Shown here: positions 8,976 through 55,971 of the stretch, in pieces
Position numbering within the stretch: the stretch's first letter is position 1
Layout of the letters: each line of letters starts with the position of its first letter
Assembly (NCBI GenBank): GCA_964540515.1
Contig: CAZIMS010000003.1
Span: forward strand, 10,010-74,009
Source: an uncultured Pseudomonadota bacterium
GTDB taxonomy: Bacteria > CALINM01
Direction of reading: 5' to 3'
DNA length: 64,000 bases
Position numbers and translations under genes: made by a program
The notes under the pieces: generated by a model
Told to the model about the DNA's origin: nothing
The model's database searches: none
The model's input: the letters and a program-made list of their open reading frames with translations, nothing else

Positions 8976-10310
8976 ATGCTAAACAAAAAAATATTGAACT
9001 TACTTAAAAGCAAAAAGATAGCCCTCCCTTTGACAATATTTTTATTATTGTTATTTAACAGTGGTGCTTACGCTATTTCGCTGGGTAATCCTGTTATAGT
9101 ATCTGACAGTAGGTTTCAGAGTTTAGGTGGGATAGCTACAGACGGTACTAATATTTATGTTGCCGATTATGGTGCAAATAAGATCTGGAGACTTGATGCC
9201 AGCAGAGTAGTAACTCCCCTCATTAATGTGTCCAAGCCAATCTCTGTTGCCCACGATAGCGGCAAACTATATGTTATAACTGAGAATGGAGGATTTACTT
9301 ATACTACTGCAGGGGCAAATACAACACCAAATAGTTTTGGTGCAGGGGTGGTTAAGGCTTCTGACATTATAGTTGATACTACATATATTTATATAGCAGA
9401 TATTTCTGCAAAAAATGTCAAAAGATATAATAAATCAACAGGTGCTTACGTTGATGCCATTGGTGGTCCTGTTAATACATCAGCTACAGATGCGCAGAGT
9501 GGTAAATTTTACATGCCATCAGGCCTTGCGCTTTCTGGTACAAAGTTACTTGTTTCTGACTACAATAATCCGAGTAACATAAGATATACATTAGCAGCTG
9601 CAGGTGGTACTACTGCATGTATAAGTGGTGTAACGGGCGATATAGGTTATAGAGTTACTAAGCCCACAAAACTCGCTAACAAATATGATAGCAAAATTGC
9701 TCGTCAAGATAGTAGGTATTATTACTATAACTTATGTCCAAACATGACAGGCCTAAATACAGGCACCAAGCCTGATAACATTGTCCTCTGTTCTCAGACA
9801 GAACTAATTAATGGTACTTGTCCTGATTTTGGTGGATACTTAGGTTATAAATCTACTGGTGTTGTGCCAGATAGTTATGAAGGTAAGCCTAAGGGCCTTG
9901 TTCAAATATTTAATGGTACTACCTTTGACAGATCCTATGTGTTAAAAAGCTTTAAAGACGCTACTAATTTTGTGATTGCTAATTATACGCTTACAAGTCT
10001 GTGGGCTGATGGCACATATATCTATACTCTTGACTCACAGGGTATGAAAATAGATATTTACGACGATATCTCAAACACCTCTTTTGCGAAGGGGACAAAT
10101 GATGCTAATTATACTTATATACCCTTCGCTAATGATAATCTGGCCAAATCAGCACCAGCAGGTTACGGCAGATATCACAAGGCTGGAAGGAAAACTTTGC
10201 CAACAAGCTTACAAAACTCCTTAGTTATATATAGAGATCTTGTTAAAAAAGGCACAGAGCTTGTAATATCAGACACAGCTGGTAAGGTTATATACTTTCC
10301 AATTCAGTAG
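8976..10310 (+). CDS. Secreted Asn/Thr-rich beta-propeller-like protein (NHL/SMP-30-like repeats)
   Basis: Signal peptide and repeated motifs such as YVADYGANKIWRLD, KLYVITENGG and YIYIADISAKNVKRY, resembling NHL / six-bladed propeller blades. It carries about 10 N-x-S/T sequons. Confidence 0.35.
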   Translation: MLNKKILNLLKSKKIALPLTIFLLLLFNSGAYAISLGNPVIVSDSRFQSLGGIATDGTNIYVADYGANKIWRLDASRVVTPLINVSKPISVAHDSGKLYVITENGGFTYTTAGANTTPNSFGAGVVKASDIIVDTTYIYIADISAKNVKRYNKSTGAYVDAIGGPVNTSATDAQSGKFYMPSGLALSGTKLLVSDYNNPSNIRYTLAAAGGTTACISGVTGDIGYRVTKPTKLANKYDSKIARQDSRYYYYNLCPNMTGLNTGTKPDNIVLCSQTELINGTCPDFGGYLGYKSTGVVPDSYEGKPKGLVQIFNGTTFDRSYVLKSFKDATNFVIANYTLTSLWADGTYIYTLDSQGMKIDIYDDISNTSFAKGTNDANYTYIPFANDNLAKSAPAGYGRYHKAGRKTLPTSLQNSLVIYRDLVKKGTELVISDTAGKVIYFPIQ

Positions 10311-10329
10311 TAAGGAGGGGGCTTAGAAA

Positions 10330-11106: not shown

Positions 11107-11123
11107 AATTTTAGGAGAACCTT

Positions 11124-14100
11124 ATGAAGCACCTAAGGTTAGCAATTTTATTAATAACAATTATAATGGGTGTAATGGCTAATCAAGTCTATGCTGTTGA
11201 TCCACCACATAACACTATTGATTGTTCAACTTGTCATGGTGCAGGTAGAGTTAGCTATGGTAGGCAAGGTCTTGACCTATCAACAGTGTGTTTAGACTGT
11301 CATAGACCAGGTGGGTTAGGCAAACCTGTAGGTACAAAGCCAGCTAATCTTTATGGTGCTTTAAACTCGATTACACCATTTGGTGAAGGTACTGAACATA
11401 GCTTCTCCGGTTATGACATCAATCCATTAGCTAAAGCAACAACAAGACCTAGGGATAATGAATTTGTAGGCGCCTATGGCACAAAGTTGGCAGGAATGCT
11501 TTCTTGTAACTCCTGTCACAATCCCCACAAGCAACCAAATAATGCAGTCGGCGGCAAGTTCTTGAGGGCAAAAGGCGATAAAAGTAACGTCTGTATTAAA
11601 TGCCATAGCCCTATGAATGTTACTGTAAAAGGTGGTTTTTCTCATCCTGTTAACAGTATGGTAGGGTTAAATGAAAGCGAATATTTCACACAACCGCAAT
11701 ATACAACACTTAAATCTGTATATAAAGCAAGCAATAACAACGTGACATGTCTTGTTTGTCATAAGGTTCATTATGGGTTTTCCAATCCAACAGCAACAAG
11801 TGGCAAAGGCAATGCTAAGTTAGGGCGTGTATATACCGATGACTGGCTTTGTGCACAATGTCATAAAATGTCAGTTCATGGTAATACTAAAGGATCACCG
11901 ACAGCAACATGTATAAGCTGTCATAGTACTCATAACCCCGGTAATAATATAAAACTTGTTAGAACTCAAGTTGTTGATTCAAGAGGGAAAACAAAAGCTC
12001 TTGTTTATACAGCCAACTCATTACCAACGGATTTTTATAATAACCAGGGTACAGGACTATGTCAGGCATGTCATACTAAGACCAAATACTTTAGAAACTA
12101 TTCAGTAACTAACTATATAATTACTGGTAACTCAACTCATAATCCAGATAATAGTAAGTGTATAATCTGTCATAGCCATGAGCCCGATGAAAATTTTGTT
12201 GCACCTTTAGTAGATGAAGTGCCTAATTTTCCACGAAGGGCCTTCGGTACTTCTTCCTGTAGCGGTTGTCATGCTTTTCCACCGAATAATGGTGCACACC
12301 TAAAGCATGCAAATAGTAATACTGATTTGACTGACTGTGCAGTATGCCATATAGGAGCAACAAACTTTACAACCCAAGGCGGCCATGCAAACCACGAGAT
12401 AGGCAACCTGCTTAATCTAAACGACAGGAATAAAAGAAACTTGGCTACTTTTATTACTAAAAACTCTACAAATAAATTATTAAATACTTGTGGAGGTGGA
12501 AGCCAGCCCTGCCATAGTCAGACAGGTACAGTTCCTACATGGGGTAGTACTTCGCTTTCTTGCGACGCCTGTCATGGTAATCCGCCATCAACAGGCAATC
12601 ATGTAGTGCATTCAGTGACTAATTCAATGCTCTGTACAGATTGTCACTACAACGTGACTAACAACACTGCTACCTTTAGACCCCATGCCTCAGCCTTAAG
12701 TACAGCAGGCCTTACTGATGAACAGGCATACAAAAAGAAGGCATGGGATATAACTTACACTTATGATATAAAGGTAGATGACAGAAATAGAAATAATGGG
12801 TTTAGTACCTATAGCTCTTATAACAAATCTTGTTCAAATATAGTATGTCATGACCCAAGTAATATAAACAAGAGAGCAAGATGGAATATTGATTCACCAA
12901 CATGTAATTTGTGCCATGGTAGCAATGCAACTAATATGACTACGGGCTCACATAGCCAACATTTAAATGCATCTGCTACTTTTGGTATTGCTATAACATG
13001 TAGTAGCTGTCATACAAATGTTGGACCTACTGCATATAACCATTTTATGTCAACACTTAATGCAATAGAGTTAGTAGGTCTTAATTATACAGGAGGTTTA
13101 GTCCCTGGCGATAACAGCTTTGGTTCCTGTGGTACAAACGCATGTCATAATAATGGTAGAGGTGGTGCTCCTATAAATAATACATACACTTGGGGTGTTA
13201 CACCTCCAGGTGACCAATGTGCAATCTGTCACGCAATGCCACCAGACACACCATATGTCGATGCCACATACTCTAAACACAAAGTGCATTGGATTAGCTA
13301 TATTCCAAACATTAGTCCTAAACTAACCCCTCAATGTACAATGTGTCATACTGCAGGTAATGCCTCTACACACATTAACAGCGCAGTAAACATGTTATAT
13401 GGTGGTAGTAATTACATTACAACATTTAGCTTTGGTGCCAACGTTAATGACCCAACTGATGATACCTGTCAGGCAACCTGTCATTCAAGCCCAACCTCAA
13501 ATCTTGTCTGGTCCGCAAGCAAACCAACAAGCTGTGATGCCTGCCATGGTTTCCCTGGATCTGCGACAAACCCACTAAATACAGGTAAACATCATAAACA
13601 CCATGTAGATAGTGATACTGACTATACAGAATGCGGTCAGTGCCATCCAAATGTAGAAGGTTATACAACAGCATTATCGGGCAAGCATGGTGATGGTACA
13701 AAAGATACTGGCCCTGGTGGTAACTCAAAAGTATCAAGCTGGATTAAAGCCACAGAATCTTGTACAAACAATTGTCATACAGTTGCAAATAACCTTTGGA
13801 AGGCAACCCAAAAAAATACAGCAGATCCTCTACAGTGTTACAACTGTCACGGCAACCCCCCAACTACAGGCAAACATACAGCCCATGTAACAAATAGCTC
13901 AATTGCCTGTGTAGCCTGTCATTTTGGTGCTAACACAACACCACATACCCCTCTTACACACAACGATGTTACTGGCACTGCTTCTAACGATGGCGATTTT
14001 CTATACAAGAAAGCTGTTGGTTGGAACTCGGCAGTTTATACAAGAACTATAGAAGTCGACGACAGATTATACAATAACGGCACTACCCCAACATGGGCAT

Positions 14101-15911
14101 CAGGTAGCTGTTCTACTAAGAAATGTCACAATCCTTCACCATCTGCAACTTATAGTGCAAACTGGACAAGTGGCGCTAATTCATGTACTCTATGTCATGG
14201 ATATATTGGAGCAACAACAGGTTTATCAACTGGTCACAATGCCCATGTGACAGCAAACACCAACTTTGGAATAAATATTACATGTACTAACTGCCATAGC
14301 AATAATGCTGGTAATTACAGGCACTTTATGGTTGGTGGTGTACCACGTGGGTATGTAGACTTTTCTGGAGCTGTTTTCTTTAGATATACAACAGCTGATA
14401 GAACTATACCAGGTACAAGAAACACTGGTTATTGTACAACTAATGTATGTCACAATGATGGACGAGGTGTAAGCTATCCAGCAGTGTCATCAAAAATACA
14501 TTGGGGAACTACACTTCCTAATAATGATCCTAACGTAGCGTGTAACATTTGTCATAAGTTTCAGATAAATACGAGAAGACATTTTGACCACTTCTCAACG
14601 GTAAGTACTGCTAAATATGGTCCAAGGTTACAGTTTACAACAGCTAACTGTAATCAGTGCCATAGCTTACAAACAAACTCAACACATATTAATACAGTTG
14701 TTAACTTTAGAGATGGTGGCGCTAACTTATCAACTACAAAATCTTGTAACAACTGTCATACCTCTGTGAATGCTCAGAGAGCAAAAGGTTACTGGTTATA
14801 CAGCTCAACGACGAGCTTTTTAAGATGTCAGACTTGTCATTTAACAACAGCTGGAACACCTGCATATAGCAAATACACAAGCTCAATTGCCGGAGGTGTG
14901 TACGCACCAGCATTTCCAGCCTATGCAACGCTAGGTCACGGAAGACCAACTGCATCTGGTAATTATGCTTCAGGTAATCCTCCTGCAAATCAGACATTAT
15001 GTACGAATTGTCATGGTATTACATCTTGGGGAAGTGGTGGAAGACATATAACCAATACAGCTAATGATTTCAAAAGATTGATACTATCTACTACAAATGC
15101 ACAATGTAATTACTGTCATGGAGCAAATCAGCCTGGCTTTGCAACTAAGAGCGGTATAGTATCTCATAAAGGTACAGTAAGATTTTCTTTCCCAGAACTT
15201 TCATGTGGTGAATGTCATGAGTTACACGGTGGTAGCACTAATAAACCTGTAAACAGTAACATAATGATGATCAGAGCCACAAATGCAACATACTATGCTC
15301 CATCCGCTACTGTAGTATTTACATCGCGGACCTTTGGCACTGATTCTTTTGACGAGGCTGAAAGTCCCTTTACTTCGGGATCTTCTAATAATGATGATAT
15401 CTGTGCGACTTGCCATGTAAATACTTACCACAATAGCAGGACCAAAGATGGTAAACATGGATCAGGAAACAATGGCACAGACTATGGCAACAGTCAGAGC
15501 TGTATAAACTGCCATAGCCATAAAAACTTCTTTACACCAGCTGGTTGCAATGGCTGTCACGGTACAGATGGGCCTGATGGTGCACCAAGAACATCTGGAG
15601 GCTCAAAATACTCAGGCAGCTATGGTGCCCATGCTATACATCTGGATCTTATATTCCCAAGAGTTGGAGTAACAACTAATAAATGTGATAAATGTCACGG
15701 GGCTGGTGCTACAGCAGGCACACACACTGGACATAATCAGGGTAATGGTAATGTTTTAAGATCTAACGTAACATTAAATGTAAGCACTGAATACGCCTTC
15801 AAGGGTACAAACCCAAGTTACGTTATGAGCACTGAGCCACAGTATGCCTATTGTGCAAGCACTAACTGTCATTTTGGACCATCTCCAAAATGGAAGTGCT
15901 TACCATACTAA
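11124..15911 (+). CDS. Giant secreted multiheme c-type cytochrome, 1595 aa, about 34 canonical plus about 8 variant heme sites
   Basis: Signal peptide MKHLRLAILLITIIMGVMANQVYA. I counted 34 CxxCH motifs and further Cx3CH, Cx4CH and Cx6CH sites (CSNIVCH, CGTNACH, CQATCH, CTNNCH, CSTKKCH, CTTNVCH, CASTNCH, CGGGSQPCH), often paired with a following CxxCHG-PP-xG-H module. The protein is extremely rich in Asn, Thr, Ser and Gly. Confidence 0.93.
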   Translation: MKHLRLAILLITIIMGVMANQVYAVDPPHNTIDCSTCHGAGRVSYGRQGLDLSTVCLDCHRPGGLGKPVGTKPANLYGALNSITPFGEGTEHSFSGYDINPLAKATTRPRDNEFVGAYGTKLAGMLSCNSCHNPHKQPNNAVGGKFLRAKGDKSNVCIKCHSPMNVTVKGGFSHPVNSMVGLNESEYFTQPQYTTLKSVYKASNNNVTCLVCHKVHYGFSNPTATSGKGNAKLGRVYTDDWLCAQCHKMSVHGNTKGSPTATCISCHSTHNPGNNIKLVRTQVVDSRGKTKALVYTANSLPTDFYNNQGTGLCQACHTKTKYFRNYSVTNYIITGNSTHNPDNSKCIICHSHEPDENFVAPLVDEVPNFPRRAFGTSSCSGCHAFPPNNGAHLKHANSNTDLTDCAVCHIGATNFTTQGGHANHEIGNLLNLNDRNKRNLATFITKNSTNKLLNTCGGGSQPCHSQTGTVPTWGSTSLSCDACHGNPPSTGNHVVHSVTNSMLCTDCHYNVTNNTATFRPHASALSTAGLTDEQAYKKKAWDITYTYDIKVDDRNRNNGFSTYSSYNKSCSNIVCHDPSNINKRARWNIDSPTCNLCHGSNATNMTTGSHSQHLNASATFGIAITCSSCHTNVGPTAYNHFMSTLNAIELVGLNYTGGLVPGDNSFGSCGTNACHNNGRGGAPINNTYTWGVTPPGDQCAICHAMPPDTPYVDATYSKHKVHWISYIPNISPKLTPQCTMCHTAGNASTHINSAVNMLYGGSNYITTFSFGANVNDPTDDTCQATCHSSPTSNLVWSASKPTSCDACHGFPGSATNPLNTGKHHKHHVDSDTDYTECGQCHPNVEGYTTALSGKHGDGTKDTGPGGNSKVSSWIKATESCTNNCHTVANNLWKATQKNTADPLQCYNCHGNPPTTGKHTAHVTNSSIACVACHFGANTTPHTPLTHNDVTGTASNDGDFLYKKAVGWNSAVYTRTIEVDDRLYNNGTTPTWASGSCSTKKCHNPSPSATYSANWTSGANSCTLCHGYIGATTGLSTGHNAHVTANTNFGINITCTNCHSNNAGNYRHFMVGGVPRGYVDFSGAVFFRYTTADRTIPGTRNTGYCTTNVCHNDGRGVSYPAVSSKIHWGTTLPNNDPNVACNICHKFQINTRRHFDHFSTVSTAKYGPRLQFTTANCNQCHSLQTNSTHINTVVNFRDGGANLSTTKSCNNCHTSVNAQRAKGYWLYSSTTSFLRCQTCHLTTAGTPAYSKYTSSIAGGVYAPAFPAYATLGHGRPTASGNYASGNPPANQTLCTNCHGITSWGSGGRHITNTANDFKRLILSTTNAQCNYCHGANQPGFATKSGIVSHKGTVRFSFPELSCGECHELHGGSTNKPVNSNIMMIRATNATYYAPSATVVFTSRTFGTDSFDEAESPFTSGSSNNDDICATCHVNTYHNSRTKDGKHGSGNNGTDYGNSQSCINCHSHKNFFTPAGCNGCHGTDGPDGAPRTSGGSKYSGSYGAHAIHLDLIFPRVGVTTNKCDKCHGAGATAGTHTGHNQGNGNVLRSNVTLNVSTEYAFKGTNPSYVMSTEPQYAYCASTNCHFGPSPKWKCLPY

Positions 15912-15968
15912 GCTGTAAAAGGGGTGATAAATATGAAGATATATAGCTTAATAAAAAGGAAGGTAAAT

Positions 15969-18900
15969 ATGAAAAAGATAGCATTAACATTCATATTGAT
16001 GCTACTTGTACCTGTAATTGCACAAGCTGCTGTTACAGTAGCAGACGTTGTTAAACATATTCCCACAGATGTGTCAGTGCAAGCAGGTGCATCAACTACA
16101 GACCTCAACAGAAATGTTATCACCCTTTCATATAGCTTAAGGTCAGATCAAACTAATGATGTGTTAACTAGTATTACAATTGATGATACTGGAACCCTTG
16201 CTGCAGGTGAGGCAGATCTTAAGGTTTATGTTAACCCTATGGGTAGAAATAGTACAAGGGGCGCCTTTCTTGTGGTAAACCAGCCATCTTGGAGTGCTGC
16301 GAGTGGGACTATAAACTTTTCGAGGAACATTGCACTTACACAAAATGTTAAAGCTTTTGTATTTATTGTATATGATTTAAGAAGCACCGCTGCAGGTAGA
16401 ACAATTCAGACATCAGTATCGTCCATGGGGCTTGCTGCTGGTAGTGGTAGTGGTACAAGCGTTCCTATAAACCAAACTTCAAATTTAAATAATGTAGTTG
16501 CAAAGACCGCATGTTATGATGATGTAAAGCTTAATCAATGTGGTATGTGTCACAACTATCAGGGCTATTACCAGATGTTTTATCCCCATTCATCAGCTAC
16601 ATCAAGAAAGGGGCATGAAAAACATGTTGGCCTTAATAGATTTGAATGCTTTATCTGCCATAACAATGCAAATAGATATCATACAAGGTATACCAGTGTA
16701 GCGCCACAACACATGAATAATGCTATTAACGTAGGCCCTAAGATTTGGGACAATGTATCTTCTGCCGGTGGATTAGGTGTTGGACATGGCAGTTACAATA
16801 GTTCAACAAGAGTATGTTCAAACGTATATTGTCATTCTAATGGTGCTGGCACGAGGGTTAACTCTCCTGCTTGGGGAACAAAGGCATCAGGCTGTACAGT
16901 ATGCCATGGGACACCACCAAACACAGGAGCACATAATGCCCACTGGACAAGGATAACAGGCCTTACTTCTCCAGGAGATTGTGGTATATGTCATAGGGAT
17001 GGTGGAACAGGCACCTTTCATCATGCCGATGGTCATGTAGATGTGTTATTCGATCCCGCCTATAACGACAGAAACTTAACAGCCACTTACAATACTGGTG
17101 CAAAGACATGCTCTAATGTAAGTTGTCATGGTGGTGTAACAACCCCAGCCTGGAATTCTGCTACAGGTGCATATAGACAGACAGTTACAGGTGCTGCTTT
17201 CACTTCAGAAAACAATACATGGTTAAGATGTGAGATGTGTCATGTAGTTGATAACATAACATCAGGACAAGAAACCAATGTTTCCAGATGGAATAGTGCA
17301 AGGTCTGGTAAACACAACGCCCATGCTGTGACAGGCCTTGCAAGTATGAGGGCATACACAGGTATAGTTAATGGTGTTAACTTTGGAAGAAAAAGAATGA
17401 GGGTATCAGTATGTTATGTCTGCCACAACAATGCACATTTTGATGGCACAGCAAATGATTATCGCTGGACAAAGGCCAGTATTTCCGATTACCATTTTTC
17501 CATTAACCCAGGTGGCACTAACAATACAATAGGTGGTAGCGCACAAAGAGGTGGTGGAACTGTAGGAGCAAATATATTTGATACTTATGTTGATAACTCA
17601 ACAACTGCTATAGCACTAAATACTTCACCGACTCAAAATGTCTTTTATATGAGGTCAACAGCTGATATATATCAATCTGGTACCTGTAACAACACAGACT
17701 GCCATGGTGGTGGTACATGGAGTTATGTGGCTACATTAGACTGTACTACATGTCATAGTAAGGTGATAAGGGGTAGAACAGCAAATGTAATTGCTGAGTT
17801 TAGTATGCCATCTCGCCATGTTCAGGGTGTAGCGGTTAACTCTCATCATTGTTACAGATGCCATTGGGAGGCTGACAATAATGCTGGAACAATAGTTAAA
17901 AACGCTTTATACCATGGTGATAATAAAGCACAGTTAGTTATCTATGATTCAACTAACAATGCGAGACCAACAACAGCAAATAGCGCAACCTTAACTGTCT
18001 TTAACAGAGCTACATCTGCAACTAGTTTGCGGGTTAATGCCCACTGTTTAGGCTGCCATAATGAAGGTGGAAAGGGAAAAGCAATCTTTCCAGGTGATAC
18101 AAGAACAACAAACCAGTATGCTTGGGATGGAAGCTCAATACAGGCGAGATATATGGCATATAGACGTTACTCGTCACATGTGTATAACGCAGTAACCTAC
18201 AACGTAGTTCCAAATAAAATTAAAACTTCTAGCTCACACTACTATATGAACCAGCATCAAAGAGGTGTTGCTGTTGGTGCAGCATGGTCAGATGACCAGA
18301 GCACGATTTTAGCAGCAGGCACCTTTGATGCCCAGGGAAGGCAGGGTTCTGTTGGTTGTTTAGACTGTCATAACTCACACGGCTCTAACATACCTTTTGG
18401 TACCTTTGGCTATACATCTTACAGCTCCTTTACTGGTAAACACAGGGGTGGTATATTAAAACAGACATGGGCAAATACTCATGGCTATGGTGATAATTAT
18501 ACACCGACTGAAAGAAATCTTAACGTTACTGGTGGTTTATGGGCAATATGGAGCGCCCAAGCAGCACTATGCTTTGACTGTCATTTAGGTCCTGATAAGG
18601 CCATTACAGCATATTTGGGATCAACCTATTCAAGCTGGTCTTCAGTAACTACTTTGCCACCAGATAGTAGGGGAGTAAGAAGAAACTACATTAGCTATGG
18701 TAGAAACGCTGGTAATATCATTGCAGGTTACTATGATCCTATAAATTATGAAGCTGCAATAACTAACAGAGCATCGATACACGGTAGAGGTAGATGGTAT
18801 ATAGATTTAAACACCGCAAATACTACCTATGGTAATAATGGCTATAGTTATGTACAAAATCAGAGAAACAATAGTGCAGCCTTCTGGTTTGGTGAGTTTA

Positions 18901-20264: not shown

Positions 20265-20288
20265 AAAAAAAATAAAAGGAGGTTTGTG

Positions 20289-20345: not shown

Positions 20346-20373
20346 TGAGAAGTTGCAAGTCAGTGTTATTGGT

Positions 20374-40757: not shown

Positions 40758-41114
40758 ATGAAAGATACAAAAATTAATAGATTACCATTGTTAATAATTA
40801 TTTTTTTATTGCTCCTTTACGGAAAATACCTCTGGATATATATACCATTGATTTTGCTGATTCTAATAGAGCTATCTACTAAATCCTTAAGGTTATATGT
40901 ATATGCTTTAAAAAAAACTGTAAAAATTATAGGCACTGTGAATAACTGGGTTTTTCTTACTATAACTTATTTTTTGATCATAATCCCCATATCTTTTTTT
41001 TATAAAAAGAGTAAGAAATCAAAGATTAATTACTATACAAACTCATCTATCCCTTCTACTTTTTTGAATGTGGATTATAAAATTGATAGGGCAAGCTTCT
41101 TTAATCAATGGTAA
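40758..41114 (+). CDS. Small membrane protein (118 aa) adjacent to the carbamoyltransferase
   Basis: Two or three predicted transmembrane helices and a basic tail. No known motif. Confidence 0.4.
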   Translation: MKDTKINRLPLLIIIFLLLLYGKYLWIYIPLILLILIELSTKSLRLYVYALKKTVKIIGTVNNWVFLTITYFLIIIPISFFYKKSKKSKINYYTNSSIPSTFLNVDYKIDRASFFNQW

Positions 41115-48226: not shown

Positions 48227-48870
48227 CTATGGACTGGGAAGAGTACTGGCAGGCAAAAAAAGTTGGGAAGAGACCTTTTTATGATATTATTGCCTCTCTA
48301 TACAGATTTTTTATAATAAGAAGAAGCCTAAATTATTTTATCAAGAAATATGCCAAAAAAGAGAATTATCTCCTCCACGCAGGCTCAGGGAGTGGTGAAG
48401 TAGATAAAGACCTAATATATAATTATAAGATATTTGCTATTGATAGCTCAGCTGAGGCGATGAATATTAACAGAGTTGATAATTATAAAGTGAGAGGCGA
48501 TATCTTTTTCTTACCCTTTAGGGATAATACTTTTGATATAGTCTATAATCTCGGAGTGCTTGAACACTTTAGTAGAGGTGAGATAATAAAATTGCTTTGT
48601 GAGTTTAAAAGAGTTCTCAAGAAGAAAGGCTATCTTATAGTTTTTATACCACCAGAGTTTGGATTAACGGTGGTCTTTTTCAAATTACTCAAGAAGTTTT
48701 TAAAAATTTTTATGAGAAGTGAGGTTGAGTTTCATCCCAAAGAGCCATCGAGACTAAAGTCTAAAAAAGAAGCTCTGGAATTTTTAGATGAGTCTGGTTT
48801 AAAATTAAAAGAATATTACTTTGGCATAAGAGACCTCTTTACTTATTCTGTAATAATAGCTGAAAAATGA
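48223..48870 (+). CDS. Class I SAM-dependent methyltransferase
   Basis: LLHAGSGSGEVD (motif I) and a downstream acidic-loop motif. The protein is 215 aa. Confidence 0.6.
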   Translation: MTMDWEEYWQAKKVGKRPFYDIIASLYRFFIIRRSLNYFIKKYAKKENYLLHAGSGSGEVDKDLIYNYKIFAIDSSAEAMNINRVDNYKVRGDIFFLPFRDNTFDIVYNLGVLEHFSRGEIIKLLCEFKRVLKKKGYLIVFIPPEFGLTVVFFKLLKKFLKIFMRSEVEFHPKEPSRLKSKKEALEFLDESGLKLKEYYFGIRDLFTYSVIIAEK

Positions 48871-50420
48871 TCAAGACAGAAAAAAAACTCTACATTTTTT
48901 TATTACTTTTAATAACCTCAATATTTTATCTGAGAGTTTTCTTCCTTGATTTTGTATGGGATGATATACCTCAGGTAATACATAATACAACGGTTAAAAA
49001 TTTTGATCTTTTCAATATGTTTATAAAAGATGGAGAGTGGGGGATAGCAGTTAGGGAGACAAAAACACCTTACTATAGGCCAATCTTTATATTATCTTTA
49101 GCCATAGATTACCTTATTGCTGGTGAAAATCCAGCGTTTTTTCATACAACCAATCTAATATTACATCTTCTTCTAACTTTAGCAATATTTTATACGCTTT
49201 CTTACTACTTTGAGGATAAATTTTATGCCTTTTTAGGCTCCTTGTTTGTAGCTCTTTATCCTGCAAGGGCTGAGGCTGTTGTCTATGTAAGTGCAAGGCT
49301 TCATATTTTAGGAGCTCTTTTTTCGATATTAACCTTTTATCTATTAAAAAGATATTTTACTGAAAATAATAAAAAACTATATTACCTTTCAGTTTTAACC
49401 TTTTTTCTAAGTATCTTTAGTTTTGAGATGAGTCTCTTCTTGCCAGTCTTTGTAATTTTAGAAAATGGCTTCTCAAAGTTGAAAAATACAGTCAAGATAT
49501 TGGCGCCTCATATTGTTCTGATTATAATCTATTTTCTTGCAAGATGGTTAGTACTTACGAAGTATATATGGTTTGATGTGCCCTTTCCTACAAAGTTTTT
49601 TACTGGATTAGCCACTTTTGTTAAGTATTTAGAGATAATTTTTTTCCCCTTTAATCTGAAAACCTTTTATGAAAATTTTGATTATTTCAAGAAAAATATT
49701 GATTTAGATGTGGCTTTTGGTTTTGTCTTGCTTAGCCTATTAATATACAGTCTCTACATATCTTACAAGAAAAATAGGGTAATATTTTTGGGGCTACTGT
49801 GGTTTTTGTTAACATTCTTCTTTGTATCTAATATCCCCTATCTTATGTATCCATCACTAATAGCAGAAAGATATCTTTACTTTCCATTAATAGGACTTGC
49901 TTTTATTATCCCTGAGTGTTTTAGAGTTTCTATAAAGGATGAGAATAAAAAAAAGATAATAATAGTAAGTGTTACTATTTTGTTTTTAATACCTGCCTTC
50001 TATTCAATTTATAAAAGGACAACACCTTATAAAAACAATCTTCTCTTTTGGCAAGAGGCTATAAAGGATGCCCCTAAAAATACTTATGCCCTTGATCAGC
50101 TTGCGCAGGTTTATTTAGGAATGAATAACTATTTTGAGGCTTTAAGGCTCTATGAGATAATTGCTGAGATTAATCCAGGAGATTTTGATAATTATACAAA
50201 GATGGGCAATTTTTATTTAAAATTTGGCAATTATTTAAACGCTGAGATTTACTACAACAAGGCTTTAGAGATAAAAGAGTATGATGAGGCCTATTGGGGG
50301 CTTGCAAGAGTTAATATATTAAAAAATGATTTTGAGAAAGCCAAAATCTACCTTGAAAAGGCTATAAAAATATCCCCTCATAAGAAAAAATATAGAGAAA
50401 GCTTACAGAGTATTAGGTAA
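48867..50420 (+). CDS. TMTC/DUF1736-like TM+TPR GT-C glycosyltransferase (paralog)
   Basis: LDFVWDDIPQV, PYYRPIFIL, SARLHI and IAERYLYFP, followed by C-terminal TPRs. Confidence 0.65.
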   Translation: MIKTEKKLYIFLLLLITSIFYLRVFFLDFVWDDIPQVIHNTTVKNFDLFNMFIKDGEWGIAVRETKTPYYRPIFILSLAIDYLIAGENPAFFHTTNLILHLLLTLAIFYTLSYYFEDKFYAFLGSLFVALYPARAEAVVYVSARLHILGALFSILTFYLLKRYFTENNKKLYYLSVLTFFLSIFSFEMSLFLPVFVILENGFSKLKNTVKILAPHIVLIIIYFLARWLVLTKYIWFDVPFPTKFFTGLATFVKYLEIIFFPFNLKTFYENFDYFKKNIDLDVAFGFVLLSLLIYSLYISYKKNRVIFLGLLWFLLTFFFVSNIPYLMYPSLIAERYLYFPLIGLAFIIPECFRVSIKDENKKKIIIVSVTILFLIPAFYSIYKRTTPYKNNLLFWQEAIKDAPKNTYALDQLAQVYLGMNNYFEALRLYEIIAEINPGDFDNYTKMGNFYLKFGNYLNAEIYYNKALEIKEYDEAYWGLARVNILKNDFEKAKIYLEKAIKISPHKKKYRESLQSIR

Positions 50421-52201
50421 TGATATCTTTTAAAAAAATAAAAAATGAAAAAATTTATTCTTATTTAGCTTTTATAGTTTTTATAAGCCTTTTAGTCTTT
50501 GCTAATACCCTCTTTTTTGACTATGTGTGGGATGATACTCACCAGATTAAATATAACAGGTCTCTAAGGGATATCAAAAACATTTATGATTTCTTTCTCA
50601 GCCCAATACCTGAGATGCCCATGTATTACCGCCCCATCTTTATGTTGTCACTATTAATTGATTATCAGATATGGGGACCTTCTCCCTTTGGGTTTCATCT
50701 AACTAATATCTTACTAAACATTTTCTCTAATATACTAATTTTCATTGTAGTAGAAAGAATTTTTAAATCGAGGGCTATTGCCTTTATAGCAGCTCTTATA
50801 TTTGCTGTTCATCCATCCCATTCTTCATCGGTATCTTATATATCAGCAAGAAATGAGTTACTTTGTGGTTTTTTTGTTCTCCATGCCTTTTCTTTTTATA
50901 CAAAATATAAGATGGAAAGAAACAAGAGAATACATCTTTTATTAAGTCTTACTTTTTACATTCTTGCTTTACTATCTAAAGAAATGGCTATTACTATGCC
51001 TTTTCTTGTTTTACTTTATGAGTATGCCTTTCACAAAGAAGATATAAGAAGAGACTTTAAGCATATATTTCTATTTATCTTTACTACATTCATTTATTTC
51101 TTAATTAGGCTACTTGTTTTAGAAGCAGAAGCACAAAGCTTTCCTCTTTTATGGAGATTGGCTACATTCTCGAAGGTACTTTTATATGACCTCTTTATGC
51201 TTTTTTTTCCCTTCTTTCATAAGGCCTTCCATAAAGTTGAGATCTTAGAGGGTTTTTCTAACTTTTTATCGTTATTATATCTTTTGTGTGTCCTGCTGAT
51301 TTTGGCTTTAACTATCTTTTTAAGCAAGTATGATAGGAGACTCTTTTTCCCCTTTACATGGATTATTATCTCATTAATTCCGGCAACAACTATAATAACT
51401 TTTATTTACCCTACTCTTGTTGCCGAGAGATACCTATATATACCTTCTATGGGTTTGGCGATGTTTTTAGCTGTTTTTTATTATGATATTTATAATCTAA
51501 TTACAAAAAAATTTCCTCGAAAGGCCCTTTTCTTAAAAATAGCCTTTGGATTAATAACGCTGGTCTTTTTAGTGCTTACATTCGAAAGAAATTTTGAGTA
51601 TAAGGACAATCTAACTCTATGGAAGACTGCTAAAGAGGATGAGCCCTATGAGCCCTATGTTATAGATAAATTAGCGCAATCTCTAATTGAAAAAAAATAT
51701 TACGCTCAAGCTGAGGTGGAGCTTAAAAGGCTTGAGATGATAGACTATAATAACCCTCAGGTGCATCAAAAACTTGGTAATCTATATAAGAGATGGGGAA
51801 GATATGATTTAGCAGAGGCTAAATATTTATTAGCTCTAAAATTTGCACCAGATGACAACTTGGTTCTTGATGATCTTGCAGATTTATATAAGAGAAAGGG
51901 TGATTTAGATAGAGCATTAAGTATCTTTTTGCGCTCCATAGAGATAGAGCCTAAGGACTCTAATGTAAACTATGAAATAGGAGAGATCTTACTGCAAAAA
52001 AATGATTTATTTCAAGCAGAGAAGTTTTTCCTGAATGCCATTGCCTATAATCCAGATCATCATCTTGCCTTTTCGAGATTGGGAGAGATATATATGTTTA
52101 TAGGAAGAATAGATCTGGCTAAAGAGATGTTTAAGAAAGCCCTTGTATTAGAACCTGAAAATGAGGATTACAAAAACAAACTTTTGATGATAGGGCAATA
52201 G
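50420..52201 (+). CDS. TMTC/DUF1736-like TM+TPR GT-C glycosyltransferase (paralog)
   Basis: FDYVWDDTHQI, MYYRPIFML, SARNEL and VAERYLYIP, followed by C-terminal TPRs. Confidence 0.65.
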   Translation: MISFKKIKNEKIYSYLAFIVFISLLVFANTLFFDYVWDDTHQIKYNRSLRDIKNIYDFFLSPIPEMPMYYRPIFMLSLLIDYQIWGPSPFGFHLTNILLNIFSNILIFIVVERIFKSRAIAFIAALIFAVHPSHSSSVSYISARNELLCGFFVLHAFSFYTKYKMERNKRIHLLLSLTFYILALLSKEMAITMPFLVLLYEYAFHKEDIRRDFKHIFLFIFTTFIYFLIRLLVLEAEAQSFPLLWRLATFSKVLLYDLFMLFFPFFHKAFHKVEILEGFSNFLSLLYLLCVLLILALTIFLSKYDRRLFFPFTWIIISLIPATTIITFIYPTLVAERYLYIPSMGLAMFLAVFYYDIYNLITKKFPRKALFLKIAFGLITLVFLVLTFERNFEYKDNLTLWKTAKEDEPYEPYVIDKLAQSLIEKKYYAQAEVELKRLEMIDYNNPQVHQKLGNLYKRWGRYDLAEAKYLLALKFAPDDNLVLDDLADLYKRKGDLDRALSIFLRSIEIEPKDSNVNYEIGEILLQKNDLFQAEKFFLNAIAYNPDHHLAFSRLGEIYMFIGRIDLAKEMFKKALVLEPENEDYKNKLLMIGQ

Positions 52202-52246
52202 AGTATTTAGGTTTTTAAGGTATAAAATTAAAAATTATCTGATAAA

Positions 52247-52978
52247 ATGATTTCTATGGATAAAGACATCTCTGTGGTCATTCCAGCCTATAATGAAGAA
52301 AAAATAATAGAGCAAACGGTAAAAAAAATTAGAGAATATCTAAGTTCGAAGGGATTTAGCTACGAGATTATAGCTGTAAATGATGGTTCTTCTGATAGGA
52401 CGGAAGAAATTTTGATAAAACTAAAAAATGAGATTGAGGAGCTAAAAGTTATTAATCATAAGGAAAATATGGGCAAAGGGAGATCTGTTAAAGATGGGGT
52501 TTTAAACTCTTTAGGAGAGCTAATATTATTTACAGATGCAGATCTGTCAGCTCCAATAGAAAACTTAGATGGGTTAATAGAAGAGTTAAAAAAGGGGTAC
52601 GATGTGGTTATCGCATCAAGAGAGATTGAAGGGGCAAAGGTAAGAAAAAGAACTTTAATTAGAAGGGTACTTAGCAAAGTTTTTAATCTTGCCATAAAAA
52701 TATTTGGTTTTAAAGGTTTTAGAGATACCCAGTGTGGTTTTAAACTTTTTAAATCTACTGTAGCCCAGTTTCTTTTTCTCAAATCAAGAATAAATGGATA
52801 TGCCTTTGATGTAGAGATACTGCATATAGCAGAAAAAAGGGGCTATAAAATAAAGGAATATCCCATCTTATGGATAGATAGAAAAGATTCAAAGATGAGG
52901 CTTTTTAAAGATGGACTAAGAATGCTGAAAGAGGTTATAAAGATTAGGTATTATGATTGGAAAGGCTATTATATATAA
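52247..52978 (+). CDS. GT2 glycosyltransferase, polyprenyl-phosphate sugar synthase (Dpm1-like), copy 3
   Basis: ISVVIPAYNEEKII...IIAVNDGSSDRT...ILFTDADLSAP. Confidence 0.8.
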   Translation: MISMDKDISVVIPAYNEEKIIEQTVKKIREYLSSKGFSYEIIAVNDGSSDRTEEILIKLKNEIEELKVINHKENMGKGRSVKDGVLNSLGELILFTDADLSAPIENLDGLIEELKKGYDVVIASREIEGAKVRKRTLIRRVLSKVFNLAIKIFGFKGFRDTQCGFKLFKSTVAQFLFLKSRINGYAFDVEILHIAEKRGYKIKEYPILWIDRKDSKMRLFKDGLRMLKEVIKIRYYDWKGYYI

Positions 52979-54602
52979 AGAGTGGAAGGAAAAACATTAT
53001 TATCTTTTTTTTATAGCTCTAAATCTTGTCTTATATTTTAATACACTATTTTTTGGTTTTGTCTGGGATGATATTAGACAGATTGTGTTTAATGATAGGC
53101 TAATATCTCAGATAGTAGATTTATCATTTCTCTTTAGCCCAGTAGGAGAAAATGTTTCTTACTATAGGCCAATCTTTTTTCTATCTTTAGCTATTGAGGC
53201 ATTTTTGTTTAAAGGACAGGCCTTTGGATTTCATTTAGGAAATATAATTTTACAGATATTGGTAGTTATTTTTATCTTTAAGCTTTTAAGAGCGATGAAT
53301 ATTGATAGTAGTTTGTCTCTTTTAACAGCTTTTATCTTTTCCATTCATCCGTCCCACTCGGAGCCTGTTTCTTGGATTTCTGCAAGAAATGAGATTTTAT
53401 ATAGTCTTTTTGGTTTAATCTCATTCTATCTTTATATTAGAGGTAGCTATCTTTCTTTTCTTTTTTTTGTCCTCTCTTTGCTTTCTAAAGAGACTGCCAT
53501 AATCTTACCAGTGCTGATCTTTCTTTATGAGATAATATTTAATGGCAAGTTAGAAAAAAAGCGAATCTTTTTCATCATTTCGTTCTTTTTATTGTCCTTT
53601 TGCTATTTAGTATTTAGGAAGTTTCTTCTTCCAGAACCTTTTGGCGACGAGGTTTATGTTAATGTAAGAGTTTTTACGACTATAAATAATTTAGCCTTTT
53701 ACTTAAAAAAGATGTTTTTTCCCTTTGATTTAAAAGTTTTTTACAGTGGTCTCATTAAAAATAGTTTTGATAGAGAGGTTGCTTTTTCGTTAATCACCCT
53801 AATCTTATTCTCCATTTTTAGCTTTTTAGTAGTTAGGAGGGATAGAAGAGTCCTTTTTTTTATCCTATGGTTTATTCTTCTTATTTTGCCTGTATCAGGT
53901 GTTGTTGTTACATCAACTATAACATATGGCTCTGATAGATATTTATATCTACCTTCTTTAGGGTTATCTTTTTTGTTTGCCCTTTTTTTATCAAAGCTGT
54001 CACCAAAAAAACTATTAATAGTACTTTGCTTTCTTCTATTTGTTTTAGGTGGCTATTCTGTAAAAAGAAATTTTTCCTACAAGGATCAGCCAACATTTAT
54101 CAATGAGGCATTAAAAGATGCGCCATCGGATCCTCTCGTTTTAAACGAAATCGGAGTTTATTATTATTTCATAGGGAGGCTTGATCTCGCAGAAGAGGTG
54201 TTTAAAAAGGTAATAGCTTTGAGTCCAAAAAGTTATGGTGGTTACTACGACCTTGCGAGGGTACAGTATGATATAGGGCTTTTATTGGAGGCGAAGGATA
54301 ATTTTCTAAAGGCCCTTGAGCTAAAACCCAACTTTTCACCAACATATTATTTCTTAGGAGAGATAGCTCTTAAAGAAAAAAGATTAGAAGAGGCATATAA
54401 ATTATTTTCCGATGCCATAAGATATAATAAAAACTATGCAGATGCTTACAATAGGCTTGGTGAGATTGAAGTATTAAAAGGAAACTTAAGAGAAGCTTAT
54501 TCGCTCTTTGAAAGAGCCTACTCCCTTGAGCCCGACAGAGATTACTTAAACAACATGAAGAAAATTGAGGGGTCTATAAATCCCTATTCCCCGAGAAGGT
54601 AA
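52953..54602 (+). CDS. TMTC/DUF1736-like TM+TPR GT-C glycosyltransferase (paralog)
   Basis: FGFVWDDIRQI, SYYRPIFFL, SARNEI and GSDRYLYLP, followed by C-terminal TPRs. Confidence 0.65.
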   Translation: MIGKAIIYKEWKEKHYYLFFIALNLVLYFNTLFFGFVWDDIRQIVFNDRLISQIVDLSFLFSPVGENVSYYRPIFFLSLAIEAFLFKGQAFGFHLGNIILQILVVIFIFKLLRAMNIDSSLSLLTAFIFSIHPSHSEPVSWISARNEILYSLFGLISFYLYIRGSYLSFLFFVLSLLSKETAIILPVLIFLYEIIFNGKLEKKRIFFIISFFLLSFCYLVFRKFLLPEPFGDEVYVNVRVFTTINNLAFYLKKMFFPFDLKVFYSGLIKNSFDREVAFSLITLILFSIFSFLVVRRDRRVLFFILWFILLILPVSGVVVTSTITYGSDRYLYLPSLGLSFLFALFLSKLSPKKLLIVLCFLLFVLGGYSVKRNFSYKDQPTFINEALKDAPSDPLVLNEIGVYYYFIGRLDLAEEVFKKVIALSPKSYGGYYDLARVQYDIGLLLEAKDNFLKALELKPNFSPTYYFLGEIALKEKRLEEAYKLFSDAIRYNKNYADAYNRLGEIEVLKGNLREAYSLFERAYSLEPDRDYLNNMKKIEGSINPYSPRR

Positions 54603-55971
54603 GCCATCTAATAGCCCTTTTAAAAACGTAGTAGAGATGTTCAAGGCTTTTTATGCTTTTTATAAAATCAATTATTATGCGGGGTCTGAAATAAAACTTG
54701 ATGAGAGCCTTCCTTCTATACCATGTAAGCTCTGAGACAGTAAGATTGGGAGGAGCCCATATTGTTGACTGTAAAGAGGGGCTAAACTTTTCCCAGTGGT
54801 CAATCTTTAAAAGGCCATCTCTTAAAAGCTCATGATAGATTGTTGTACCTGGTAGTGGCTGGAAGGTTGCAAAGGATGCCCTTCTAAGTGGGAGAGATAA
54901 GGCAAAATCTATAGTATTTTTAATATCATCCTTTGTCTCTCCAGGATATCCCAGTATAAAAAAGGCGTTTATGTCAAGATCAAACCTTTTTAGGAGCTCA
55001 ATTTTTTCCTTTATCTTCTCAACCGTTAGAGATTTCTTCATAAGTTTTAAAATTCTATTGCTTCCTGATTCTATTCCAATAGAAAGGGCATAGCATCCTG
55101 AGTTCTTCATATAAGAGACCATCTCTTCATCTAAAGTGTCAATTCTTACCCCATTCGGGCAAGTCCAAGTTATGTCTGGAAACTCCTCTTTTAGTTTTTT
55201 ACAGAAGGAGATGACATAATCTTTTTTAAAGGTAAAGTTGTCATCTTCAATATGAATCTCTTTTACGCCATAGTTATTGTATAGCAGTCTAATCTCATCA
55301 ATTACATTTTCAACACTTCTTTGTCTAATCCTTCTACCTGATACTATGTGTCCTCCACAGAAGGTGCACAAATAGGGACAGCCTCTTGAGGTAATAATAG
55401 GTGCTATAGGGTATTGTTTGAAAAATGCTCCGTGTGGAGCCATTGGATATGTATTAGGAGGTATAAGCTCCCATGCGACAGAGAAATCATCTAAATTTTC
55501 TGGAAATATAGGTGGGTTTTTATAAATTTTATCATCCTTTAAATAGGCTATACCTTCAATATCTTCAATATTAGGTTCCCCGGTTTCTAAATATCTTATA
55601 AGCTTTGGAAAGCCTATCTCGCTTTCGCCAATAAAAACATAATCAACGAGATTTTTGAAAAAGTTGAGAGTTTCATCAGGCAAAGCTGTTGGGTGGGGGC
55701 CACCAAGAATAGTCTTGGCATGCCTATTAGAAAACTTAATAATTTCAAGATATTTTTTGCAAAGAGATAGGTCTTTTGTGAATAGTGTTATACCTATAAC
55801 ATCATAATTTTTTATTTTATCAGGCAGTTGTTTTAAAGTAACGCCTTCTTTTAGGGCATCTAAAATTTTTACGTTATAATTTTTTATAACTGTAGAGGCT
55901 AAATACCCCAAAGATATGGGTGGTATAATCTCATCGGCTGTGCTATTTAGTTTGATGAGTAAGATATTCAT
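54574..55971 (-). CDS. B12-binding domain radical SAM protein, paralog of 35473-36945
   Basis: SRGCPYLCTFCGG radical SAM motif, and IRQRSVENV shared with the other copy. Its 3' end overlaps the convergent TMTC-like gene by 29 nt. Confidence 0.75.
   Translation of the reverse strand: MNILLIKLNSTADEIIPPISLGYLASTVIKNYNVKILDALKEGVTLKQLPDKIKNYDVIGITLFTKDLSLCKKYLEIIKFSNRHAKTILGGPHPTALPDETLNFFKNLVDYVFIGESEIGFPKLIRYLETGEPNIEDIEGIAYLKDDKIYKNPPIFPENLDDFSVAWELIPPNTYPMAPHGAFFKQYPIAPIITSRGCPYLCTFCGGHIVSGRRIRQRSVENVIDEIRLLYNNYGVKEIHIEDDNFTFKKDYVISFCKKLKEEFPDITWTCPNGVRIDTLDEEMVSYMKNSGCYALSIGIESGSNRILKLMKKSLTVEKIKEKIELLKRFDLDINAFFILGYPGETKDDIKNTIDFALSLPLRRASFATFQPLPGTTIYHELLRDGLLKIDHWEKFSPSLQSTIWAPPNLTVSELTWYRRKALIKFYFRPRIIIDFIKSIKSLEHLYYVFKRAIRWLTFSGNRDL

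Follow-up and report, generated by a model that had tools for sequence, protein, structure and literature searches.

Probable cytochrome-linked protein glycosylation by an archaeal-type AglB cassette in a bacterium: a candidate two-layer locus

Might a bacterium glycosylate its giant cytochromes with an oligosaccharyltransferase (OST) of the archaeal type? The question is raised by a 64,000-nucleotide stretch of DNA from an uncultured Pseudomonadota bacterium (assembly GCA_964540515.1, contig CAZIMS010000003.1, positions 10,010 to 74,009 of the forward strand), here called the window, in which genes for secreted multihaem cytochromes are followed by genes for two homologues of the STT3/AglB OSTs (GT66), AglB1 and AglB2. 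The cytochrome cluster (8976-20264) encodes an NHL beta-propeller and cytochromes with 4, 34 (cytA) and 14 (cytB) CxxCH motifs, and signal peptides are predicted on its secreted proteins. By Pfam and NCBIfam, the region downstream (21387-55971) encodes, besides the two STT3/AglB homologues, six intact proteins and one pseudogene that join a transmembrane (TM) domain to TPR repeats, three short GT2 glycosyltransferases, a carbamoyltransferase, a C-methyltransferase, a GDP-mannose-dehydratase-like enzyme, a methyltransferase, an SGNH esterase, a fused MFS/spermidine-synthase-like protein and two B12-radical-SAM enzymes. A preliminary description made from the sequence alone had taken this region for a glycosylation system dedicated to the cytochromes, and open reading frame calling recovered every gene that it had listed.

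Of 14 distinct lineages, 10 have a cytB-like gene directly upstream of one for an AglB-like protein (Table 1). The explanation that we favor, and to which we give roughly an even chance, is that an archaeal-type AglB cassette carries out cytochrome-linked protein glycosylation in this bacterium. The locus would then comprise two layers, namely a conserved, operon-like cassette around AglB1 and an insertion that adds AglB2 together with further glycosyltransferases and tailoring enzymes.

AglB1, AglB2 and the conserved cassette

AglB1 matches the Pfam families AglB_core-like (49 bits, cut-off 27) and AglB_L1 (52 bits, cut-off 23.6), and both window proteins match the NCBIfam model TIGR04154, archaeo_STT3 (E 7e-99 for AglB1 and 6.5e-51 for AglB2), as expected from their earlier assignment as STT3/AglB homologues. 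Their TIGR04154 scores of 332 and 174 bits, set against a curated cut-off of 450, mark the two proteins as relatives of this subfamily rather than members of it. A homologue from clade D (Table 1) also matches PF02516, STT3, with 74 bits (cut-off 24.5). The best sequence match of AglB1 in the PDB is AglB-L of Archaeoglobus fulgidus, at 19-20% identity; AglB2 aligns to the same protein over residues 10-502 and is about 24% identical to AglB1.

An AlphaFold2 (AF2) model of AglB1, built from 29 homologues with a pLDDT of 83, was searched with Foldseek. The top match is A. fulgidus AglB (7e9s; E 8e-31, TM-score 0.71), followed by eukaryotic STT3 and then by DPY19 and PglB. PglB (3rce) ranks twentieth, with E 1.5e-8 and a TM-score of 0.40, and ArnT and PMT appear far down the list at E about 1e-2. 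The model displays the complete STT3/AglB fold including the C-terminal domain, instead of an ArnT- or PMT-type fold devoid of it. The fold of the AglB1 model and the sequence motifs described below thus led us to reject an assignment of these proteins to the ArnT/PMT type.

In A. fulgidus AglB the metal-binding and catalytic residues are D47, D161, H163 and E360 of the TIXE motif; TIXE pairs with the backbone of the sequon and activates the asparagine amide, and the motifs WWDYG and DK/MI jointly form the pocket for the sequon serine or threonine (PMC8342417). The residues D43, D159-H-H161 and S-I-N-E349 of AglB1 align with D47, D161-H-H163 and T-I-A-E360 of the archaeal enzyme, and D43, D159, H161 and E349 are invariant across the 29 homologues. 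AglB2 retains D42, DHH, VSES and AWDIGH. The WWDYG motif is replaced, by TWDMG in AglB1 and AWDIG in AglB2, and all 16 family members examined conform to xWDxGH, in which the first tryptophan is never present and the tyrosine is replaced while the second tryptophan, the aspartate and the glycine are kept. Judged by the retained catalytic residues of both proteins and by the modeled fold of AglB1, AglB1 and AglB2 look like active OSTs.

In related loci AglB1 belongs to a core of genes with GT2a, the secreted protein p354, the lipoprotein p714, a DUF1573 protein and, on the opposite strand, a B12-radical-SAM gene. The gene for GT2a overlaps the end of the AglB1 gene, and the protein is 70-78% conserved in relatives. 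Wherever a locus of clades A-C reaches beyond the GT2 gene, it has a p354 orthologue, and in clade B the p714 orthologue sits upstream of AglB. Neither p354 nor p714 could be placed in a family or matched in the PDB: p714 shows no more than faint HEAT-like hints, and profiles of the two run against PDB sequences, together with Pfam scans of all their orthologues, yielded just faint resemblances to HEAT or TPR repeats. Orthologues of radical SAM enzyme 2, at 66-77% identity, flank the cassette in seven loci (L003, L008, L010, L011, L013, L019 and L025), and one at 49% is found in clade D locus L021, such that this enzyme accompanies the cassette in all four clades, and its conservation (66-77%) exceeds that of AglB (45-51%). 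The matches of both B12-radical-SAM enzymes of the window in NCBIfam fall below threshold and are generic to class B, HpnJ-like in the case of enzyme 2. The places of p354 and p714 are taken in clade D by an Ig protein of the Big_1/invasin kind and by proteins that resemble TPR proteins or BamB. We considered p354, p714 and the DUF1573 protein as dedicated acceptors of the cassette and rejected them, as their sequons are few and not conserved.

Linkage of the cassette to giant cytochromes

The AglB1 family is small, comprising 34 database clusters and only four loci in 185,579 species-representative genomes. The ten lineages with a cytB-like gene directly upstream (the window, L007, L010, L018, L013/L019, L025 and L020-L023) are distinct, given that AglB identity among them ranges from 88% down to 31%; every locus of clades A, B and D for which upstream sequence is available shows this arrangement. 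In clade D, where AglB is 31-36% identical to that of the other clades, the gap between the two genes measures 24-144 bp. The gaps of clade B (2.1-3.7 kb) are occupied by a p66x lipoprotein gene, sometimes together with a radical-SAM gene. The linkage also holds in the reverse direction. The protein database contains only nine close homologues of cytB, five of which could be placed on contigs (window, L007, L010, L013 and L014), and four of these five adjoin an AglB cassette. Persistence of the adjacency down to about 31% identity points to a functional coupling of cytB-type cytochromes with this OST family.

Table 1. Loci encoding AglB-like proteins, grouped by clade
Group	Loci	AglB identity to window	Cytochrome upstream
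Clade A	window, L007, L005	59-61%	yes; L005 cut at AglB start
Clade B	L010, L018, L013/L019, L025	45-47%	yes
Clade C	L003, L008, L011/L016, L012	~50%	no; L011 cut upstream
Clade D	L020-L023	31-34%	yes
755-amino-acid paralogues	L006, L026, L027	~31%	no

In the window, an MNT-like nucleotidyltransferase/HepT toxin-antitoxin pair (20565-20882 and 20926-21288) lies between cytB and AglB1. This pair is absent from L007, where the gap between cytB and AglB is just 180 bp, and it therefore looks recently inserted in the window.

The other genes of the cytochrome cluster recur in part. A homologous SGL/NHL protein occupies the position of the beta-propeller in L013, the 4-CxxCH cytochrome has orthologues in L007 (74%) and L013 (46%), and cytA, which in addition to its CxxCH motifs carries two Cx3CH and five Cx4CH motifs, is matched by an orthologue at 82% in L007 and by others at about 40% in L010, L013 and L018.

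A number of observations weigh against a cytochrome-linked glycosylation system, some drawn from gene order and others from the acceptors and the enzyme itself. Clade C (L003, L008 and L012) keeps the cassette without adjacent cytochromes, and the cytB orthologue of L014 (53% identical) has no AglB gene within 10 kb downstream; from the levels of identity, L014 may represent the unlinked cytB of clade C. The GT2 gene is not adjacent to AglB in clade D. The block of TM+TPR genes, which resemble the eukaryotic TMTC enzymes (see below), is not conserved with the cytochromes, and homologues of these proteins are widespread in bacteria that lack such cytochromes. No flippase, initiating phosphoglycosyltransferase or nucleotidyltransferase was recognized in the locus. 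The earlier expectation of an island dedicated to its cytochrome neighbors gains support for the AglB core, linked as it is in ten lineages, and loses it for the TMTC and tailoring block, which lies outside the conserved unit; the occurrence of the island in relatives lacking the cytochromes, which would speak against dedication, is seen in part, in the core cassette of clade C, which has no cytochromes adjacent to it.

The upstream secreted proteins had been described as saturated with N-x-S/T, and the density is indeed high: cytA and cytB contain 29 and 25 sequons, about 1.8 per 100 amino acids and some four times the density of neighboring genes, most of whose products have 0.1-0.6 per 100. 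Both proteins, however, consist of about 10% asparagine and 18-21% serine plus threonine, and 300 shuffles of each sequence yield expectations of 30.7+/-4.8 for cytA and 25.5+/-4.5 for cytB, corresponding to a z of about 0 for the observed counts. The 258-amino-acid cytochrome possesses only three sequons, and the NHL protein alone among the proteins of this cluster exceeds expectation (10 versus 5.2). Sequon asparagines show no preferential conservation, being retained at 22 of 29 positions compared with 99 of 131 for other asparagines in orthologues at 82% identity, and among cytB orthologues no sequon was found to be conserved in all clades. Since the counts follow composition and are not preferentially conserved, the sequon argument is neutral rather than supportive. 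N-x-T is modestly enriched (z 1.6-2.8) in six of seven cytB orthologues from clades B and D, for which the reversed-motif control is flat except in L021 (z 2.5). The extended D/E-x-N-x-S/T sequon occurs 0-3 times per cytochrome, and this near-absence suits an enzyme of the AglB type better than one of the PglB type.

Many of these observations would also follow if the locus served general envelope glycosylation or the synthesis of a cell-surface glycan, with many substrates, a surface layer or a polysaccharide among its possible products, and with the cytochromes as mere neighbors or as a few substrates among many. Known PglB and AglB systems are general; the cassette of clade C and the 755-amino-acid paralogues are not next to cytochromes, the latter adjoining glmS and glmU in L006 and probably in L026; TM+TPR homologues are spread across phyla; the window cytochromes carry no more sequons than their composition predicts; and in clade D AglB is followed by the Ig-like Big_1 surface protein. 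Chance or inherited gene order nevertheless explains poorly an adjacency of cytB and AglB maintained in ten lineages to 31% identity with gaps as short as those of clade D, and the other conserved proteins of the cassette have few and non-conserved sequons. We therefore consider a general locus somewhat unlikely.

A second alternative concerns the reaction rather than the substrates. The first tryptophan of the Ser/Thr-pocket motif is missing throughout the family, which leaves the acceptor motif uncertain and recognition of N-x-S/T not assured, a further point against the reading favored here. The AglB-like enzymes could accordingly be linked to cytochromes without being OSTs for Asn-x-Ser/Thr; they might recognize another motif or residue, or take from the polyprenyl-phosphate donor just one sugar or a group that is not a glycan. 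The xWDxGH form of a motif that builds part of the Ser/Thr pocket (PMC8342417) is in keeping with this proposal, as are the conservation beside AglB of a single GT2, akin to the AglJ/DPMS synthases of lipid-linked monosaccharides, the want of a universally conserved cytB sequon and the presence of DPY19, a related GT-C C-mannosyltransferase, among the fold matches of AglB1. Set against it, both DXD motifs and the TIXE-like SINE are invariant, and the second tryptophan, the aspartate and the glycine of WWDYG are kept; we judge such a departure from OST chemistry to be quite unlikely.

Taken as cytochrome-linked glycosylation, the conserved layer would operate as follows. GT2a would load a sugar onto polyprenyl phosphate at the cytoplasmic face of the membrane, a flippase would move the lipid-linked sugar across, and AglB1 would transfer this sugar or a short glycan onto secreted proteins in the periplasm. 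The likeliest targets that we infer are the giant multihaem cytochromes encoded upstream, cytB and cytA, and especially the 14-haem cytB family. The products of the p354, p714, DUF1573 and B12-radical-SAM genes would be members of the same conserved unit.

Some neighbors of the related loci are recorded here in their own right. In clade C loci L008 (7491-9176) and L012 (1339-3017), the AglB cassette is closely preceded, beyond two small open reading frames, by genes for myo-inositol-1-phosphate synthase and a CDP-alcohol phosphatidyltransferase rather than by cytochrome genes. In L006 (9887-15369) a 755-amino-acid AglB-like paralogue that keeps xWDxGH adjoins glmS and glmU, as checked with Pfam; open reading frames of the same sizes, probably glmS and glmU, occupy the same place in L026, and L027 has no such neighbors. 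The same metagenome-assembled genomes hold both the long AglB form and the 755-amino-acid form.

The 26 kb insertion and its glycosyltransferases

The core radical-SAM gene of the window lies at 54574-55971, and the low-G+C segment between it and the DUF1573 gene (28812-54602, 26 kb) consequently reads as an insertion (Table 2). It has been seen in full only in this lineage and is absent from L003, L008, L010-L013, L019 and L025; L005 alone shares its first gene. The lack of this TMTC-like and tailoring block in related loci that extend past the cassette makes the link between TMTC-like enzymes and cytochromes much weaker than that of AglB. The first gene of the insertion has orthologues in L005 (41%) and in L014 (34%). 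In the latter locus (13-6391) cytB is followed directly by this TM+TPR gene, the only hint outside the present lineage of a link between TMTC-like enzymes and cytochromes.

Table 2. Genes of the cytochrome cluster, conserved cassette and insertion, with window coordinates
Feature	Coordinates	Strand	Evidence
Secreted NHL-repeat beta-propeller, first gene of cytochrome cluster	8976..10310	+	Pfam NHL; signal peptide
Small secreted cytochrome, 4 CxxCH, 258 amino acids	10330..11106	+	Pfam Paired_CXXCH_1
cytA, giant multihaem cytochrome, 1595 amino acids, 34 CxxCH	11124..15911	+	Pfam Cytochrome_C7, MtrC/MtrF domains II/IV
cytB, giant multihaem cytochrome, 1446 amino acids, 14 CxxCH	15924..20264	+	Pfam scan, motif count
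AglB1, archaeal-type STT3/AglB oligosaccharyltransferase homologue, 871 amino acids	21387..24002	+	Pfam, TIGR04154, AF2/Foldseek
GT2a, AglJ/DPMS-like polyprenyl-phosphate glycosyltransferase	23995..24684	+	AglJ E 1e-36; Pyrococcus furiosus DPMS 5mlz E 9e-19
p354, secreted protein	24681..25745	+	Core-cassette member; orthologues in clades A-C
p714, lipoprotein	25765..27909	+	...FSCAG resembles lipobox; conserved core-cassette member
DUF1573 (Ig/ASH-like) secreted protein, last forward-strand core gene	27890..28822	+	Pfam DUF1573; conserved in relatives
TMTC-like GT-C + TPR enzyme 1, first insertion gene	28812..30500	+	Pfam TPR; DD, YRP, HPxxxE, DRYLY motifs
Pseudogene of TMTC-like GT-C + TPR enzyme	30542..31604	+	tblastn
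AglB2, second, shorter STT3/AglB homologue, 690 amino acids	31693..33765	+	TIGR04154 E 6.5e-51
TMTC-like GT-C + TPR enzyme 2	33784..35505	+	
B12-binding radical SAM enzyme 1, inside insertion	35473..36945	-	Pfam/NCBIfam
TMTC-like GT-C + TPR enzyme 3	36999..38768	+	Pfam, motifs
NodU/CmcH-type carbamoyltransferase	38792..40645	+	Pfam Carbam_trans_N, Carbam_trans_C; NodU E 7e-43
SGNH/GDSL esterase or acyltransferase-like protein	41105..42283	-	Pfam/NCBIfam
Fused MFS/spermidine-synthase-like membrane protein, 981 amino acids	42397..45342	+	NF037959
C-methyltransferase, Methyltransf_13/14 type	45339..46598	+	Pfam
GDP-mannose-4,6-dehydratase-like sugar-nucleotide (NDP-sugar) dehydratase or epimerase	46591..47523	+	Pfam/NCBIfam
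GT2b, PpgS/ArnC-like polyprenyl-phosphate glycosyltransferase	47516..48226	+	Pfam/NCBIfam
Class I SAM methyltransferase	48223..48870	+	Pfam
TMTC-like GT-C + TPR enzyme 4	48867..50420	+	Pfam, motifs
TMTC-like GT-C + TPR enzyme 5	50420..52201	+	Pfam, motifs
GT2c, GtrB/DPMS/ArnC-like polyprenyl-phosphate glycosyltransferase	52247..52978	+	Pfam/NCBIfam, PDB match
TMTC-like GT-C + TPR enzyme 6, last insertion gene	52953..54602	+	Pfam, motifs
B12-binding radical SAM enzyme 2, conserved core partner	54574..55971	-	Orthologues flank cassette in relatives

Seven TMTC/DUF1736-like enzymes had been proposed for this region. Six are intact proteins that unite a GT-C domain with TPR repeats and carry TMTC motifs, whereas the seventh is a pseudogene, which matches residues 8-89 and about 285-538 of a paralogue across a frame switch and an internal deletion, and none of the six matches Pfam DUF1736 (PF08409) at E<=0.01. 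The intact proteins are 24-32% mutually identical and have in common the motifs FVWDD, YYRP, HPxHxE, SKE(M/T)A and ADRYLYLP, counterparts of DD in loop EL1, SHKSYRP, KET(Q)xxT and ERxxY as published for TMTC enzymes (PMC7801869). Across 64 TM+TPR homologues D37 and P72 never vary, and conservation of D36 and Y70 is at least 90%. In a predicted model (pLDDT 94.7) a GT-C fold is joined to a TPR domain that resembles that of OGT. PMT_2 matches one paralogue (E 2.5e-13), and PF08409 is detected in few database homologues, at least two (P0110 and P0121) among the 120 matches listed. Searches against PDB sequences with the full-length profile are dominated by TPR proteins, and the TM domain alone found no match there. 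Bacterial homologues, widespread across phyla, bear for the most part a bare TPR annotation and in some cases that of a protein O-mannosyltransferase.

The three GT2s, each of about 230 amino acids, bear out the earlier assignment as Dpm1-like enzymes. They match Pfam Glycos_transf_2 with E 2e-38, 3e-27 and 9e-32, their best PDB matches are DPMS (dolichol-phosphate-mannose synthase, 5mlz), ArnC and GtrB, and their best NCBIfam matches are AglJ, PpgS and PgfS, all under the equivalog cut-offs; GT2b and GT2c in particular match PpgS, GtrB, ArnC and DPMS best across NCBIfam and the PDB. Judged from these matches, all three look like polyprenyl-phosphate sugar synthases, and polyprenyl-phosphate sugars are the donors used by GT-C enzymes. 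Sugar-tailoring enzymes are present as had been described, namely the carbamoyltransferase, C-methyltransferase, dehydratase-like enzyme, methyltransferase and SGNH esterase. C-methyltransferases of the Methyltransf_13/14 type act on NDP-sugars. The 981-amino-acid MFS/spermidine-synthase-like protein is the sole transporter-like protein in the insertion, and a flippase role for it is pure speculation.

In this second layer, AglB2, the six GT-C/TPR enzymes, which would face the periplasm, and GT2b and GT2c would add or elaborate further glycans there, drawing on polyprenyl-phosphate sugars as donors, with the tailoring enzymes providing C-methylated, deoxy, methylated and carbamoylated sugars. 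A bolder version of the proposal, which we advance tentatively and consider doubtful, holds that the AglB family co-evolved with one giant-cytochrome family as a dedicated N-glycosylation enzyme, that xWDxGH reflects a non-canonical acceptor, and that in this lineage a two-tier pathway resembling that of the endoplasmic reticulum, in which an OST is joined by six periplasmic GT-C enzymes supplied with polyprenyl-phosphate sugars, coats extracellular electron-transfer proteins with C-methylated and carbamoylated glycans.

The low G+C content of the block, its one pseudogene and the toxin-antitoxin pair inserted between cytB and AglB1 are features that an assembly artefact or a decaying, non-functional island might also exhibit. 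The G+C content is 27-32% in the core cassette and insertion, 38-41% in the cytochrome genes and 34-37% in the flanks, and the contrast between the cytochromes and the cassette with its insertion may stem in part from amino-acid composition. Either explanation is highly improbable, as NCBI assembly GCA_900096875.1 and an independently made Logan assembly contain an identical locus, on contigs of up to 188 kb, every gene but the pseudogene is intact, the catalytic residues do not vary among relatives of 31-61% identity, and neighboring genes often overlap by a few bases in an operon-like manner. The flanks and contig carry bacterial envelope markers, including a BamD-like lipoprotein, SPOR and LysM proteins and efflux genes of the MacAB/HlyD type (HlyD/MacB). 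A ParM/Alp-like actin homologue with the Pfam domains ALP_N and 'archaeal actin MreB-like C-terminal' is encoded at 59806-60822 amid chromosomal housekeeping genes.

Comparison with known systems

To our knowledge, the known bacterial N-glycosylating OSTs are of the PglB type and general. If an enzyme of the AglB type did serve a single substrate family, it would constitute a new branch of bacterial N-glycosylation, and glycoengineering might find there OSTs that follow unusual acceptor rules. For OmcE and OmcS, glycans have been discussed as insulating or organizing the cytochromes that carry them (PMC9473688), and a compact, conserved pair of OST and cytochrome would offer a direct handle on the effect of glycosylation on giant multihaem cytochromes. 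The locus also sets bacterial TMTC-like GT-C enzymes, a large uncharacterized family, beside candidate donors and acceptors.

Like eukaryotic TMTC1-4, protein O-mannosyltransferases of the GT-C/PMT clan, the TM+TPR proteins have a C-terminal, extracytoplasmic TPR domain behind a multi-pass GT-C domain. They also share DD in the first loop and the motifs (S)YRP, HPxHxE, KE(T/M) and (E/D)RxxY, and the DPMS-like GT2 genes nearby could supply a lipid-linked donor. They differ from TMTC1-4 in the undetected DUF1736 loop and in belonging to a bacterial group that is widespread and uncharacterized.

The claim that no bacterial system of this sort had been described proved too strong. In Geobacter, OmcE clusters of cytochromes and beta-propellers are reported to have, as a common feature, 15-70 glycosylation genes behind them, among them those for GT2, GT4, GT39, TPR proteins and methyltransferases (bioRxiv 10.1101/2025.10.22.684050), and cryo-EM densities on G. 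sulfurreducens OmcE have been interpreted as likely glycosylation (bioRxiv 10.1101/2025.10.22.684050; see also PMC9473688). A glycosylation island beside extracellular cytochromes is hence a described pattern. The window resembles these Geobacter and Geomonas clusters in its order of multihaem cytochromes and beta-propeller followed by GT2, PMT-clan GT-C (there GT39), TPR, methyltransferase and sugar-modification genes. It differs in that its cytochromes are giants of 1446 and 1595 amino acids rather than nanowire subunits; scans of the window by open reading frames and Pfam revealed no OmcE homologue or beta-barrel gene, no comparison with OmcE sequences having been made. An STT3/AglB-type OST is not mentioned for Geobacter, a distinction that rests on the published description.

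Bacterial PglB (Campylobacter, Desulfovibrio) is likewise a single-subunit OST of the STT3 family acting in a Gram-negative periplasm, and a cytochrome is among the proteins N-glycosylated in such bacteria, namely the periplasmic 16-haem HmcA of D. gigas, whose site lacks an acidic residue at -2 (PMC4894442). PglB, however, is a general enzyme, and the AglB1 model is far closer to AglB than to it. Neither closest kinship to PglB nor acceptors of the D/E-x-N-x-S/T kind, the two hallmarks of a PglB system, is seen in AglB1 and the cytochromes. The locus contains no pgl-type operon for building a lipid-linked oligosaccharide, and its OST gene is syntenic with cytochrome genes.

The nearest characterized enzyme pair is A. 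fulgidus AglB with AglJ. AglB-L and the euryarchaeal AglB-AglJ system provide the best sequence and fold matches of AglB1 (7e9s, 5gmy and 3waj), and the likeness extends to the set of domains (TM core, AglB core and AglB_L1 peripheral domain), both DXD motifs with the unusual D-H-H, the TIXE-type motif and an adjacent AglJ/DPMS-like GT2. The present system departs from the archaeal one in its bacterial host, in its low sequence identity and sub-threshold TIGR04154 score, in having xWDxGH for WWDYG, and in genomic setting: its genes adjoin multihaem cytochromes, and neither an archaeosortase nor an S-layer context was seen in the locus. Literature searches found neither a description of bacterial AglB-like OSTs, nor a paper on the assembly and run accessions, nor a bacterial OST family of the AglB type whose genes keep company with one particular family of cytochromes, and it is this last combination, of an archaeal-type enzyme family in bacteria with one family of giant cytochromes, that appears undescribed.

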